Positions 17,507 through 34,855 of a DNA stretch of 64,000 bases are shown here, piece by piece; the stretch's first letter is position 1; every line of letters starts with the position of its first letter. A program made the position numbers and the translations under genes. Source of the DNA: Eledone cirrhosa (taxonomy: Eukaryota); contig OZ024743.1 of NCBI GenBank assembly GCA_964016885.1, positions 225,494,001-225,558,000 on the forward strand. The letters run 5' to 3'. The notes under the pieces are model-generated. The model was not told the origin of the DNA. It did not search any database and was given only the letters and a program-made list of their open reading frames with translations.

Positions 17507-17810
17507 ACTCCACCCCCTCCCCTCTTTCTCCTACTGGCAGGTTTAGCCACCATCTCCCCTACTAATTTGCAACCACAGAATTACTACTGATTTTTGACAA
17601 TCACTTTGACCATATATGGAATTACCCCTTGAGAAGATCGGCTACTTAAATACCAGGATAAATTTTCATTTAGTCCAGAATTAGCCGTCAAAACGGCTTG
17701 AGCTCAGCTGTCGGGGTCTTACTGGTTCCTATTACCCACTCTACTACCTCAAGTATTGAGTACTTTGGTGCGTTATGGTCCACCTGGTTCCTTACCACAT
17801 TTCCTTCGTT
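17507..17810 (+). mobile_element. PLE pseudo-LTR (pLTR) copy of the family at 31782-34855, containing an HHR-like motif at 17624-17717
   Basis: Reverse complement of about 31782-32095 (cgttatggtccacctggttccttaccacatttccttcgtta matches taacgaaggaaatgtggtaaggaaccaggtggaccataacg). Same orientation as 34630-34855. Confidence 0.85.
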
Positions 17811-20800
17811 ATATATATATATATATATATAATATATATATAATATATATAATATATATATAATATATATATAATATAATATATATATAATATATATATA
17901 ATATAATATATATATAATATATATATAATATAATATATATATAATATATATATAATATAATATATAATATAATATATATATAATATAATATATAATATAA
18001 TATATATATAATATAATATATAATATAATATATAATATATATATATAATATATATATAATATATATATAATATATAATATATATATAATATATATAATAT
18101 ATATATAATATATATAATATATATATAATATATATATAATATATATATATATATATATATATATATATATAATATATATAATATATATAATATATATATA
18201 TATATATATATATATAATATATATATATATATATATATATAATATATATATATATATAATATATATATAATATATATATATATAATATATATATATATAT
18301 AATATATATATATATATAATATATATATATATATAATATATATATATATATAATATATATATATATATATATATAATATATATATATATATATATAATAT
18401 ATATATATATATAATATATATATATATATAATACATATATATATATATAATACATATATATATATATATATATATATATATATATAATACATATATATAT
18501 ATATATATATATATATATATATATAATATATATATATATATATATATAATATATATATAATATATATATAATATATATATAATATATATAATATATATAA
18601 TATATATATATATATATATATATATAATATATATAATATATATAATATACATATATATATAATATATATATATATATATATATAATATATATATAATATA
18701 TATAATATATATATAATATATATAATATATATATAATATATATATATATATATATATATATAATATATATAATATATATATAATATACATATATATATAA
18801 TATATATATATATATATATATATATATATAATATATATATATATAATGTGTATATATATATATATATATATAATATATATATAATGTGTATATATATATA
18901 TATATATATAATATATATATAATGTGTATATATATATATATATATATAATATATATATAATGTGTATATATATATATATATATATATATAATATATATAT
19001 AATGTGTATATATATATATATATATATATATAATGTATATATAATGTGTATATATATATAATATATATATATATAATGTATATATAATGTGTATATATAT
19101 ATAATATATATATATAATGTATATATAATGTGTATATATATATAATATATATATATATAATGTATATATAATGTGTATATATATATAATATATATATATA
19201 TAATGTATATATAATGTGTATATATATATAATATATATATATATAATGTATATATAATGTGTATATATATATAATATATATATATATAATGTATATATAA
19301 TGTGTATATATATATAATATATATATATATAATGTATATATAATGTGTATATATATAATATATATATATATAATATATATATATAATGTGTATATATATA
19401 TAATATATATATATATATATATAATGTATATATATATATATATATATATATAATATATATATATATATAATATATAATATATATATATATATATATATAT
19501 AATATATATATATATATATATAATATATATATATATATATATATATAATATATATATATATATATATATAATATATATATATATATATATAATATATATA
19601 TATATATATATATAATATATATAATATATATATATAATATATATATATATATATATATATATATATATATATATATATATATATATAATATATATATATA
19701 TATATATATATATATATATAATATATATATATATATATATATAATATATATATATATATATATATATATATATATATATATATATATATATATATATATA
19801 TATATATATATATATATATAATATATATATATATATATATATATATATTATAATATATATATATATATATATATATATATATAATATATATATATATATA
19901 TAATATATATATATATATATATATATATATATATATATATATATATATATATAATATATATATAATATATATATATATAATATATATATATATATATAAT
20001 ATATATATATATATAATATATATATATATATAATATATATATATATATATATATATATATATATATATATATATATATATATATATATATATATATATAT
20101 ATATAATATATATATATATATATATATATATATATATATATATATATATATATATATATATAATATATATATATATATATATATATATATATATATATAT
20201 ATATATATATATATATATATATATATAATATATATATATATATATATATATATATATATATATATATATATATATATATATATATATATATATATATATA
20301 TATATATATATATATATATAATATATATAATATATATATATATATATAATATATATATATATATATAATATATATATATATATATATATATATATATATA
20401 TATAATATATATATAATATATATATATATATAATATATATATATATAACATATATATATATATATAATATATATATATATATATAATATATATATATATA
20501 TATAATATATATATATATATATATAATATATATAATATATATATATATATATAATATATATATATATAATATATATATATATATATATATATAATATATA
20601 TATATATATATATATATATATAAATATATATATATATATATATATAATATATATATATATATATATATATAATATATATATATATATAATATATATATAT
20701 ATATATATATAATATATATATATATATATATATATAATATATATATATATATATATATATATATATATATAATGTATATATATATATATATATATATATA

Positions 20801-31781: not shown

Positions 31782-34700
31782 AACGAAGGAAATGTGGTAA
31801 GGAACCAGGTGGACCATAACGCACCAGAGTACTCAATACTTAGGGTAGTAGAGTGGGTAATAGGAAATTGTTCAAGACCATGACGGCAGAGCTCAAGCCG
31901 TTTCAACGGCTATTTCTGGACTAAATTAGATTTTTAGCTTGGTAATAAATAGCCGAACTTTTCAAGAGGTAATTCCATATATGGGAAAATTGTAGTTGTA
32001 AGGATTGGTCAACATTTCTTGTAAACATAATTAAATCTTTCATGGCGGTTGTGGGGTGGCTGAACTTGCCTGTAGAACAATGAGGGAGTGGGTGGAGCCG
32101 GTCAAGCGTTGCAAGTGAATTCTATACAACAAATTCTAAGGAGTGTGGATGAAAGCAGGCGAAAAAAGAATTTGAGGAATCTGAGAGTGGGAAGTTATAA
32201 AATTAAAAAGTTAATAAACTGAAATTAAAAAATTAAAAAATAATAAATAAAAATATTTAAAAATTAAATAATAAAAAATAATAAAAAAAACTAGTCTAAA
32301 GCAGCTGCTATATTTTTAGCTGGTATTGCATTTTCGGCCAATGCTATATAGAATTTACTGGGGTGGGGGTACTGAGGCTACAAAGGAAGAGAGGGAGTGG
32401 AAGGAAGTGAGAAGAAGAGATAAAAGGGAAAAAAGGAAAGAAGTACATCTATCTATGTATGCTGGGGTTTCCCCTATCTTGTTCGGCAAGTGGGGAAAAG
32501 AAGGATTTTACAGCCATTGTCTACCCACCCAGGTCATGATGGGGTTTGAGGGAGAGGTAAGTCCTACACAATCCGTGTTTACATGCGGTTACAAGTTCGT
32601 ATTTTTTGTTTAGGAGTTAGTCCTTCGTAAACAGCATTTGTATTGTTTCCTCCGAGCATAAGTTACACGGACAGCATCCTCCCGTGTAGGTGTTAGTCCT
32701 GGAAAGTAAGCTCCAAGTAAGATGGTATGTGATGTTATTATCTTGGAGGTCCCAGATGTAGCCCGAAAGTGTAGTGGCATGTCGCTGGGCTAGGTTTCTG
32801 AACGTATTCCGGTGTTGGTAGAGTCGGGTCTTAAAGTCACAAGCGGTTAATCCTATATAGGCTTTGTTGGAGTTTTCCGTCCTCACGCTGCATTGGTAGA
32901 TCACGTTACGTTCTCGGCATCTATTGTTGAGGGGGCTCGTTACACCTCCTGATCGGCTCTCCCTAATGTCTAGGTGGTTTCTTCCATAGGAATTGAGTTT
33001 CTTGTTGTTTGAGGAGGCGGTGTTTTGTGCGAAGTTGGGTGTGGTGCTGTAGGAGAGTTTGATAGTGTTTTTATTGATTATGTTGTGGTGGGAAGTGTTT
33101 TTTGAGGAGCCTAAAGAAGATTTTCCCGATTGGTGTTGCAACCTCGGCATTGTGGGGAGGGTTGAACCACGTTACGTGGCATGAGTGGCAGTGTCGCCTG
33201 CTGGTTCCACTAGGGGAAGCTGGGTAAAAGGAGATTTCCTCCCGAAAGCCGCTTTGCTTAAGGGCCTGGTTGTAATAAGGCGCATGTTCATTGAATATCT
33301 GCTCATTAGCAGACAATCGAGATATGCGGAGGGAGATGTTTTTAACCTGGTTATTAGCGATGTTTCTAGGATGGCTAGAGCGGCAGTGGATGTAGTGACG
33401 GTTGTCGTTTGGTTTCCTGTATGGGTAGTACAGATCATTTTCGAGGATGAGAGTAAGGAGCCCATCGCCTCAGTACAATCCACCGCCAAATGCAGGAAAC
33501 ATTTCGGTGATTTTATGTAGTAGGAATAATCCTATAAGATCGGTCACCTCTGCCAAGTCGGTCGCGCCCATACTGACGTCGAAGGGGGAATCGGGAGCTC
33601 TCTTTATCCAATTGGAGTTGTCGAAGAGGAGGACTGTCCTCCTGGCGTGGAAAATGATGTTTCTTTCCTGGTCGGTGATGGGTGTAAGTGTTTTGACAAA
33701 GTCCAAAGCGGCCATAAGGAGCGGTGGGGTAATAGAGGCGTATTAGCTTTCTATGTCGAACTGGATGAATTTTGTGTCCCATTTGTCTTCAATATTCCTG
33801 TACCATGAGATGACTTCCTGGGTGCTGATCCAAAGGCTAAGTCTCGCGTTTTGCTTGACTTTTGGTATAATGCGGTCTAGGATCTTTTTGCTGATTCTCC
33901 CTATGTCTGACTTCGTCGGGTTTATAAGGCTGATGGATGGTTTGCGGTCGAAGTCGGATTTATGGTCCTTCAGGGTGAAGTAGGGGGTCCGTGGGTCGAG
34001 ACGTTCAATACGGTCGGCAACCCCGAGGCTGGAGGTAATTTGTTGTCCATCTAGATTTATGTCATGGATTATAGAATGGTTTGCCTTCTTGTAGGTAGAG
34101 TTTAGGCTGCTCCTGATAAGTGTGTGATATCCGTCAGGGTTGATGAAATAGAGGTTTCCAGTTTTGTCCGAATGCACCAGGATGTCGCTGGTGCTTTCAT
34201 ACTCCGTTATTTTGAAATGGAGTTGTTGTAGGAATTGGTTGTGTCTGGGTTTGAATTTTATATCCTTGACCAGGTGGAAGAGGTCATTCTCGAAGAGTGA
34301 GAGCAGAGGCTTCGGTGGAGGAGATTTGTAGGTATCGAATCCGAATCTCTCCTTGGTGTCGTAGTCCTGGTTGTCGTGGTATTTATCGTAGAAGTATGTT
34401 CTCCATCTCAATCTTTTCACAAACAGGTCGATTTTTTGCGTGAGCATCCGTAGGTAAAGTTTTCTCGGTGGAACTGGGATAGTGAGTTTTCGCATGGTAG
34501 GTATTATGAAGAAACTGGAGCTTGGTGGAAAAATCGGGATATGACGTGGTAGGTTCGGAAAGTGCTCTACTACGGAGGTAGGACTCCTTAGAATTTGCTG
34601 TATAGAATTCACTTGCAACGCTTGACCAGCTCCACCCACTCCCTCATTATTCTACAGGCAAGTTCAGCCACCCCCACCACCGCCATGAAATATTTAATTG

Positions 34701-34855
34701 TATTTACCAGAAATTTTGACAACTATAATCTTCCCATATATGGAATTACCCCTTGAAAGTTTGGCTATTTATTACCAAGCTAAAAATCTAATTTAGTTCA
34801 GAAATAGCCGTCGAAACGGCTTGAGTTCTGCTGTCAGGGTCTTGAACAATTTCCT
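31782..34855 (-). mobile_element. Near full-length, inactivated Penelope-like element (RT plus C-terminal GIY-YIG, Hydra-clade-like) with inverted terminal repeat
   Basis: RT motifs KRLRWRTYF, SDKTGNLY, YFTLKDHKSDF..LINPTKSDIGRISK, FIQFDIES*Y, FDVSMGATDLAEV, GLY*GDGL (decayed YRDDGL) and PYRKPN..SSHP. Endonuclease motifs NVIYQC..AYIGLT..FKTRLYQH..LSGYIWDL..CNLCSEE. Inverted repeat 31861-32144 vs 34583-34855. Flanked by (TA)n. Confidence 0.92.

Follow-up and report, generated by a model that had tools for sequence, protein, structure and literature searches.

A hammerhead-type RNA motif with a U3:A8 core near the 3' end of an abundant PLE in Eledone cirrhosa

Three places in the 64-kb stretch of Eledone cirrhosa DNA analysed here (the window) read like hammerhead ribozymes with U and A at core positions 3 and 8 in place of C and G. 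The question that they raise is what such a motif is, whether it could cleave, and how strictly the pair at these positions is needed. We consider it probable that a very abundant Hydra-clade PLE carries, close to its 3' end, a hammerhead-type RNA motif of which these three are decayed copies, and that the intact form, as predicted, self-cleaves after GUC.

Motif copies in the window and their host element

The features concerned are the following:
17507..17812, plus strand: 3' end of a young subfamily-A Hydra-clade PLE copy (99.0% identity to positions 3226-3531 of the tandem unit in locus L041)
17624..17717, plus strand: hammerhead-type motif copy 1 (sequence reading; covariance model 113 bits)
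31780..34583, minus strand: decayed, near full-length subfamily-B element (blastn against the L041 unit, 79-87% identity; covers unit positions 6 to 3531)
31877..31970, minus strand: hammerhead-type motif copy 2 (core UUGAAAA; covariance model 129 bits)
34583..34857, plus strand: inverted 5'-truncated copy (89.5% identity to 32144-31860)
34748..34840, plus strand: hammerhead-type motif copy 3 (covariance model 124 bits)

The three homologous motifs that an earlier note had placed at 17624-17717 (+), 31877-31970 (-) and 34748-34840 (+) are borne out by the reading of the sequence, and a covariance model built from the copies matches only these three in the 64-kb window at E<1e-20. They share the scheme ACCCC / UUGAnAA / G-x-U-CGGCUA...UAGCCG-U-C / GAAA / CGGC-9 nt loop-GCYG / UC / GGGGU, and each copy carries a lesion of its own, just as the earlier note had described. 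Copy 1 pairs 17624-17628 with 17713-17717 as stem I, has the core UUGAGAA at 17629-17635 (U3 at 17629, A8 at 17634), a long-looped stem II at 17636-17689 and stem III at 17693-17711; position 12 (17690) is A instead of G, C17 lies at 17712 and the predicted cut falls between 17712 and 17713. Copy 2 has a weak stem I (ACCUC/AUGGU, only three of five pairs) and U at 11.1, and its GUC at 31884-31882 places the predicted cut between 31882 and 31881. Copy 3 has lost one core A (UUGAAA), its stem I reads ACCCC/AGGGU, its stem II contains a U.G pair, and the GUC is found at 34833-34835.

The copies of the element around these motifs are in different states. The young subfamily-A copy runs to the terminus ...CUUCGUUA, followed by (TA)n, and its 5' extent is hidden behind a run of N at 17307-17506. 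The RT-endonuclease frame of the minus-strand element is in pieces (33743-34651, 33071-33469 and 32617-33171, all on the minus strand), and a GIY-YIG-like VIYQC...YIGLT can be read in the last of them. The inverted copy adjoins the 5' end of this element head to head, an arrangement given as typical of PLEs (PMC8557442, Fig. 2 legend), and TA repeats are reached in it before the normal 3' terminus.

In the genome the host element measures 3.53 kb, with the motif 100 nt short of its 3' end, and it often occurs in tandem (units spaced 3531 bp) or head-to-head arrays within (TA)n tracts. It encodes a 717-aa protein that has an RT, with a GIY-YIG at its C terminus. A first look gave 20,982 protein candidates in the genome, and a 784-aa frame is open at about 38 of 150 scored places. 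The element protein (P0001) carries RLRWRT, HSDKTGNLY, CNCPDRSIC, VIYQC..YIGLT, CNLC and CKH. These fit the DKT, the CxCX5C linker and the C-terminal GIY-YIG listed as Hydra-clade traits (PMC8557442, section 11), and its Atlas neighbours carry HTH_animal, RVT_1 and GIY-YIG. The copies also end in TA repeats, the target trait of the clade, and in runs X2, X6 and X7, which behave like DNA assemblies, the loose ends at the element terminus are (TA)n. The protein motifs, the GIY-YIG and the RT neighbours thus uphold the assignment of the element to the PLEs, and, as judged by motif reading rather than by a tree with reference families, the host is a Hydra-clade PLE. Pfam returned no family for P0001 at E<=1, and a profile of 28 homologues matched no solved structure at E<=1. 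Around the RF00163 loci, tblastn with P0001 and an ORF scan found no coding part. Summed depth climbs tenfold from about L041:4752; this was dropped as evidence, since the likeliest cause is that reads from every subfamily map to the conserved part alone.

A second PLE with the same core had also been proposed at 40737, and this the sequence does not bear out. What is present at 40737-40743 is TTGAAAA alone, a heptamer that occurs 26 times in the window when both strands are counted. It is not a hammerhead: it lacks a stem II with GAAA after it, and neither the descriptor described below nor the covariance model matches. The ORF upstream (39440-40015) has no Pfam family and no GIY-YIG motif, and gives only weak Atlas leads (score 0.83).

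Anatomy of the intact motif and its relatives

That the consensus is complete can be seen from intact natural copies, since an intact version with GAAA and GUC is matched at 100% over 141 nt by no fewer than 40 genomic places; the same identity speaks for recent activity. Intact copies have all parts of a hammerhead in type-I order (stem I, core strand 3-9, stem II, 12-14, stem III, 17, stem I). Stem I has 5 bp, the core is U3-U4-G5-A6-N7-A8-A9, and helix II has 8-11 pairs: it begins with G10.1-C11.1, adds 6-9 more and closes in a loop of about 32 nt. G12-A13-A14 come after it, then stem III (A15.1-U16.1 plus 4 bp), whose 9-nt loop includes the palindrome GAGCUC, and then C17. U4, G5, A6, A9, G12, A13, A14, A15.1-U16.1 and H17 are all present in intact copies of subfamilies A-D; the core differs from the canonical one only in C3>U and G8>A, which affect both members of the known 3-8 pair. 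The three-way junction is the minimum-free-energy fold of intact copies, with a stability not above that of shuffles (z -0.45 and +0.59).

The custom hammerhead descriptor used here was relaxed from a first, stricter version that gave zero matches in the window. In its relaxed form it rejects all three window copies and accepts intact ones (once in every L041 unit, once in L016), and block shuffles of the window set the chance level at 0.055 U3:A8 matches per 64 kb. The Rfam hammerhead models gave no match in the window, in copy 1 or in three intact loci, whether at the gathering threshold or relaxed to E<=10. This is weak evidence against a hammerhead, because Rfam also misses the canonical motifs of the relatives: 19 of the 20 relatives' loci given to it hold a canonical descriptor match, and at gathering thresholds it returned only 2 matches, both on the minus strand of L213 and none on a sense strand. 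Pair counts on an alignment were dropped as evidence for the fold, as they mostly reflect shared ancestry and pattern-based sampling.

Relatives of the element were taken from 77 loci of other sources, where the descriptor finds canonical matches 53 times on the sense strand and 3 times on the antisense strand. The family motif lies where relatives carry their hammerheads. The letters at positions 3 and 8 in 43 distinct sense matches are C-G in 40, U-A in one (L196), G-C in one (L189) and U/U in one, so a Watson-Crick pair is found in 42 of 43, and the covariation that the earlier note had asked for is real across relatives. The U-A case (L196:2103-2138) is on a metagenome contig that encodes a relative at 39% identity, with a UUGAAAA core in a Hydra-type PLE hammerhead, as here, 217 nt behind the matched end of the ORF. 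Its build is compact, unlike that of the family motif: stems II and III have 4 bp each, the loop of stem III is 1 nt long, and A stands at the cleavage site. Judging from these sequences its swap looks like one of independent origin.

The Hydra-clade PLEs of Craig et al. 2021 (PMC8557442) share with this element the C-terminal GIY-YIG, the DKT, the CxCX5C linker and the (TA)n targets. The paper's File S2 likewise places all hammerheads of the clade near the 3' end, in type-I order with a stem I of 4-7 bp, and the Hydra-2_aMil element has a similar end, ...CUUCGUUA. The differences are considerable. All cores of the clade in File S2 are CUGAnGA, as against UUGAnAA here; their stem II has 3-7 bp with loops of 3-8 nt and their stem III 3-4 bp with loops of 1-3 nt, and among them the loop II of about 32 nt has no counterpart. 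The unit of 3.53 kb is also long for elements described as "generally short (<3 kb)".

Variation at positions 3 and 8

Genome counts were made with exact 20-mer IUPAC patterns, for which backward controls gave 0. They amount to 3146 copies with U3/A8, 508 with C3/A8, 31 with U3/G8 and 6 with C3/G8. The U3:A8 core stands as the norm of the family, UUGAnAA, with the other core positions intact, although it is not strictly kept: subfamilies A and B have U-A, subfamily C a C.A mismatch (at least 508 copies) and subfamily D a U.G wobble (31 copies). The family consensus is therefore not CUGAnGA, its stem pairings are present, and a search for CUGAnGA would miss it. We rejected a canonical C3:G8 subfamily in this scaffold, because in the tree the 6 copies fall at scattered points inside the C.A clade, and they make up about 1% of the 508 C.A copies, the level expected of single A>G changes.

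The oldest subfamily is U3.G8, and by a tree of 98 copies the subfamilies seem to have followed one another as U.G, U-A, C.A and again U-A. Such a drift inside the family by single transitions means that the constraint on the 3-8 pair is real but loose, and the spread of the C3.A8 subfamily indicates that the pair is either dispensable for spread or that weak activity suffices. One could imagine that the core pair stepped through one-step intermediates (U.G, U-A, C.A and back to U-A) over successive master lineages of a still-active element, with the 500-copy C.A subfamily acting via a protonated A+.C wobble, but we regard this as a long shot. If true, it would provide a natural, datable series for gauging the extent of catalytic loss that a mobile element tolerates, and would also show how compensatory change in a ribozyme active site proceeds.

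Change between subfamilies was counted outside the 20-mer that had picked the copies. Only 1 of 27 core and stem columns differs, and the changed one keeps a G.U pair, while 23 of 56 columns in the 5' flank differ (Fisher p 2.4e-4). Loop II differs in 9 of 35 columns, and N7, the sole free core position, is G or A. Core and stems set against flanks show a purifying pattern. The 100-nt tail 3' of the motif is conserved likewise, and conservation alone does not single out catalysis.

Rival readings and what the family means

The most serious alternative, to which we give roughly one chance in four, is that the motif descends from a hammerhead, no longer cleaves, and is kept together with its 100-nt tail as a folded 3' UTR signal for the RT or some other factor. 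The tail conserved as much as the motif would fit this well, as would the successful spread of a C3.A8 subfamily of at least 508 copies, the low in vitro activity of PLE hammerheads (PMC4209133), and the 3' part of loop II (AUUUAGUCCAGAA), which is invariant between subfamilies and for which no role in a hammerhead is known. A structural signal would however not require U4, G5, A6, A9, G12, A13, A14 and C17 to stay unchanged while unpaired. The six core columns that were free to vary in the sample all stayed fixed, core changes are confined to the partners of the 3-8 pair and to the free N7, and the relatives keep the Watson-Crick pair in all but one match.

Somewhat less probable still is that cleavage takes place only when two copies, in tandem or folded back, pair by their palindromic loops III to form one longer helix III, a mode proposed for other metazoan PLE hammerheads. 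All subfamilies have the 6-nt palindrome, and copies are very often in tandem or head to head. For such hammerheads low cleavage in vitro and activity only in dimeric constructs have been reported, and a palindrome at positions 15.2-16.2 and in loop 3 is given as characteristic (Cervera and de la Pena 2014, PMC4209133). Against this, helix III here already has 5 bp in the monomer and is formed in the minimum-free-energy fold, compared with 1-2 bp in the minimal dimeric motifs. A third reading, an accidental resemblance in one sequence multiplied by transposition, would suit the unexceptional fold energies and the fact that copy number is no independent support when all copies come from one origin, but it is highly improbable given the low chance level of the descriptor, the position of the motif at the relatives' hammerhead place with their strand bias, and a core that stays fixed while the flanks diverge.

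We keep to a hammerhead-type motif that is predicted to cleave when intact as the best reading. U3:A8 would replace C3:G8 and position residue 8, with its 2'-OH as the general acid and G12 as the general base, as in other hammerheads. In read-through transcripts of tandem or pseudo-LTR arrangements the cut would release RNA of unit length, its start lying 100 nt short of the element's 3' terminus.

The concept of a U3:A8 hammerhead is itself not new. Natural C3-G8 to U3-A8 covariation has been reported in several hammerheads (Perreault et al. 2011, PMC3088659), with the same two-position swap as in this family, and that paper, citing Przybilski and Hammann 2007, gives such variants as active in vitro. 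About 1,300 U3-A8 motifs are reported in PLEs of Schistosoma mansoni (Cervera and de la Pena 2014, PMC4209133). Since the swap was already published, including in PLEs, the family is a further example of a known thing. The Cercyon PLE motifs of S. mansoni share with it the type-I order, U3-A8, G10.1-C11.1, a palindromic helix III or loop 3 and a copy number above a thousand, with copies frequently single or oppositely oriented (PMC4209133). They are minimal, with a short helix II and helix III absent or of 1-2 bp, whereas here a helix III of 5 bp carries a 9-nt loop, a helix II of 8-11 pairs carries one of about 32 nt, the host is of the Hydra clade, and C.A and U.G subfamilies are also present. 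The motif thus falls outside the minimal class by the length of its helix III, and has the palindromic loop of that class.

A very large and recently active family thereby joins the short list of natural hammerhead motifs with a U3:A8 core, with about 3,100 motifs in an intact scaffold and 545 more with other letters at positions 3 and 8. Canonical hammerheads have been called universal among Hydra-clade PLEs, while Naiad PLEs are said in the same work to thrive without them (Craig et al. 2021, PMC8557442), and the family in Eledone cirrhosa qualifies the first of these statements. Ribozymes in these PLEs are undercounted by searches bound to CUGAnGA and by Rfam models, and the coexisting U-A, C.A and U.G subfamilies offer natural sequences on how strictly the 3-8 pair is needed.

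The motif copies in the window and the element that carries them

The motif is real, and the interpretation given in the earlier note is correct in the main. The note had claimed three homologous motifs with a different lesion in each, and both points are borne out by our reading of the sequence, the first also by an alignment of the three window stretches with a mean column identity of 77% over about 330 columns. The order common to the copies is ACCCC, UUGAnAA, G, a variable base and U, CGGCUA...UAGCCG, U, C and GAAA, and then CGGC, a 9-nt loop, GCYG, UC and GGGGU. A covariance model built from window and genomic copies matches only these three in the window, at 113-129 bits, and the next match reaches 20.5 bits.

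Motif copies in the window and their hosts (layout by blastn against a full unit of the Penelope-like element, PLE, from elsewhere in the genome)
17624-17717 (+): copy 1; position 12, at 17690 (+), is A
17507-17812 (+): host of copy 1, a young insertion of which these are the final 306 nt, 99.0% identical to the unit
31877-31970 (-): copy 2; stem I reduced to 3 of 5 pairs, 11.1 is U
34583 down to 31780 (-): near full-length, decayed element with copy 2 in its tail
34748-34840 (+): copy 3; one core A and one stem I pair missing
34583-34857 (+): host of copy 3, an inverted 5'-truncated copy adjoining the 5' end of the element of copy 2

The insertion with copy 1 is interrupted upstream by a run of N (17307-17506) and lies within a (TA)n tract several kb long, a very long and impure microsatellite at 15575-22240; TA repeats also flank nearly every copy of the PLE family. 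The arrangement of copies 2 and 3 is the one that a figure legend (Fig. 2) in Craig et al. 2021 (PMC8557442) calls typical of PLEs, with an inverted truncated copy at the 5' end.

The suggestion of a further PLE hammerhead at 40737 did not hold. The TTGAAAA found there is one of 26 such heptamers on both strands of the window, has no GAAA behind a stem II and is matched neither by the covariance model nor by the descriptor, a hammerhead motif pattern written for this analysis. The open reading frame upstream of it (39440-40015, +) yielded no Pfam family, and its Atlas leads are weak; these neighbours (score 0.83) carry PF09004, and the frame looks more like the C-terminal end of a non-LTR retrotransposon protein than like part of a PLE.

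First-look searches of the 3.0-Gb genome gave at least 1488 DNA candidates for the motif and 20,982 candidates for the N-terminal part of the PLE protein. Many PLE copies stand in tandem arrays with a period of 3531 bp, and about 38 of the 150 scored places have an open frame of 784 aa. One of these frames, read from Met68, gives a protein of 717 aa (P0001) with the motifs RLRWRT, HSDKTGNLY, FDIESYYASI, YRDDGL, CNCPDRSIC, VIYQC...YIGLT, CNLC and CKH. The Hydra clade is characterized, in section 11 of Craig et al. 2021 (PMC8557442), by an RWK motif, DKT instead of DKG, a divergent RT4, a CxCX5C linker, a C-terminal GIY-YIG without CCHH, CxxC and CxH motifs and insertion into (TA)n; all hallmarks in that section can be read in the present PLE, which is assigned to the clade by motif reading. 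A Pfam scan of P0001 found no family; 638 proteins among the 7,998 candidates scored are homologous at E<=0.001 (the best 37-53% identical), and HTH_animal, RVT_1 and GIY-YIG are present in the closest Atlas clusters. Cleavage is predicted 100 nt short of the 3' terminus of the unit (...CUUCGUUA, then TA repeats), which in arrays is 190 nt upstream of the start codon of the next unit.

The motif as a probable hammerhead

Intact natural copies contain every defining part of a hammerhead in type-I order. Their minimum-free-energy fold is a three-way junction, with a stability not above that of shuffled sequences (z -0.45 and +0.59). The descriptor accepts one motif per unit in the tandem 3.53-kb units of locus L041 and one in L016, a subfamily B locus, against a background of 0.055 matches per 64 kb when the window was shuffled in blocks. 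Rfam recognized the motif neither in the window nor in a motif copy or the intact loci, to which we give little weight because it also missed canonical hammerheads of relatives: 20 relatives' loci (L163...L223), 19 of them with a canonical descriptor hammerhead, gave two matches, both on the opposite strand of one locus. At gathering thresholds none of the sense-strand canonical hammerheads in these 19 loci was reported, and the cut-offs of the Rfam models seem too high for PLE hammerheads that have an additional base between positions 9 and 10.1.

Among 77 metagenome loci encoding relatives (33-47% identity) there were 53 canonical sense-strand descriptor matches against 3 antisense, placed before or behind the open reading frame, and in File S2 of Craig et al. 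2021 (PMC8557442) each Hydra-clade family shown has canonical hammerheads close to its 3' end. As read from the sequences, the position of the motif agrees with that of the hammerheads in relatives.

Other hammerheads were met as well. One at window 27401-27489 (+) is canonical: an 8-bp stem I is followed by CUGAUGA, stem II with its loop of about 25 nt by GAAA, and stem III, of 8 bp and capped by a tetraloop, by GUC. At minimum free energy it folds into a three-way junction (z -2.46), and Rfam does not report it at the gathering threshold. GIY-YIG-type ORF pieces of another tandemly repeated element flank it at 24274-25080 (+) and 28099-28719 (+). Elsewhere in the genome, on several contigs (loci L073-L084), a short non-coding repeat accounts for 18 Rfam Hammerhead_1 matches above cut-off, among only 74 candidates scored out of 415,510; the repeat terminates in TA repeats and can stand head to head (L073), and within 1.5 kb of it there is neither similarity to P0001 nor a long ORF.

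Positions 3 and 8

The exact pattern CCCC-3-UGA-R-8-AGWUYGGCUA was counted genome-wide, a procedure that undercounts old copies, and backward-pattern controls gave 0 for all four combinations.

Letters at positions 3 and 8 (exact 20-mers, whole genome; descriptor matches in relatives)
U3/A8: 3146
C3/A8: 508
U3/G8: 31
C3/G8: 6
L196:2103-2138, sense, metagenome contig: U-A, compact Hydra-type motif, UUGAAAA
L189:2602-2631, sense, metagenome contig: G-C, compact Hydra-type hammerhead
L239, sense: U/U, descriptor match

Among the first 100 U3/A8 places listed, 76 read UUGAGAA with A at 10.2 (subfamily A) and 21 read UUGAAAA with U at 10.2 (subfamily B). Since 94 of the first 100 C3/A8 places listed have G7 and U at 10.2 in common, they form a subfamily of their own (C) and are not scattered mutants; 27 of the 31 U3/G8 places have A7, and most have their own flanks and loop (subfamily D). 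After 60 further places had been added from these lists in genome order, a tree was computed for 98 distinct natural copies, omitting the four trait columns; rooted at its midpoint, it is a ladder with D basal, then B, then a C clade (SH-aLRT 98) with A nested in it (83, 94). Median terminal branches shorten along this series as well (D 0.074-0.080, B 0.042, C 0.031, A 0.005), so the most likely history of the two positions would be U.G to U-A to C.A to U-A, by single transitions only, an order that we infer from a midpoint root without an outgroup. The six C3/G8 copies are dispersed within the C clade and are, at about 1% of 508, the number expected from single A>G changes.

With positions 3 and 8 left free, the descriptor gave 43 distinct sense matches in the 77 relatives' loci (C-G 40, U-A 1, G-C 1, U/U 1) and 3 on the antisense strand. 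Positions 3 and 8 thus covary across independent families, which supports the proposal that the U3:A8 pair is compensatory; inside the family, however, the pairing is looser, with 508 C3/A8 and 31 U3/G8 copies.

The core swap in PLE hammerheads is already published, since U3-A8 was reported by Perreault et al. 2011 (PMC3088659), whose text on natural covariation to U3 and A8 states that in vitro activity of such variants had been demonstrated, and by Cervera and de la Pena 2014 (PMC4209133), where the account of Schistosoma mansoni PLEs gives about 1,300 hits. Set against what is published, the present family differs in how large helix II and its loop are, in its stable helix III, in the coexistence of U-A, C.A and U.G subfamilies, and in its clade: it belongs by its motifs to the Hydra clade, to which Craig et al. 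2021 (PMC8557442) in their description ascribe canonical hammerheads universally.

Constraint on the motif and its presumed role

Majority letters of the four subfamilies were compared per column, using only columns outside the 20-mer by which copies were picked. In the remaining core and stem columns 1 of 27 differs, and that one retains a G.U pair, against 23 of 56 in the 5' flank (Fisher p 2.4e-4). In loop II, 9 of 35 columns differ, the 3' part of the loop being invariant; the free core position N7 differs too, and the 100-nt tail behind the motif is as conserved as the motif. At the level of sequence, purifying selection has acted on the master lineage; conservation does not by itself show catalysis.

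From the predicted cut to the 3' terminus (window 17718-17812, L041:4797-4896) the tail is nearly invariant between subfamilies, and its minimum-free-energy fold has no outstanding structure (z +1.09). In the stem I flanks (window 17604-17623 and 17718-17735, with the corresponding places in L041 and in loci L002-L030), the 14 nt before stem I (CCAUAUAUGGAAUU, containing the palindrome CCAUAUAUGG) are conserved in all subfamilies, and GGAA before stem I could pair with UUCC after a spacer of variable sequence, a candidate extension of the stem past an internal loop. In run X2 the contig depth, when summed, becomes about ten times higher in the final 145 nt of the unit (L041:4752-4898), likely because all subfamilies share that part and differ upstream, and several head-to-head joints fall at L041:4752-4769.

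Loop III has the palindrome GAGCUC in all subfamilies, from which it is possible that the motif might act as a pair of copies; helix III, however, already has a stable 5 bp within a single copy, which sets it apart from the minimal PLE motifs in the description by Cervera and de la Pena 2014 (PMC4209133). For the motif as a type-I hammerhead, the analogy of other hammerheads suggests that U3:A8 would replace C3:G8, that G12 would serve as the base and the 2'-OH of residue 8 as the acid, and that cleavage would follow C17. A passage in Craig et al. 2021 (PMC8557442) still calls the role of PLE hammerheads unclear, and one in Cervera and de la Pena 2014 (PMC4209133) proposes the release of unit-length RNA. 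In the present family, cleavage of read-through transcripts of tandem or pseudo-LTR arrangements would likewise give RNA of unit length.
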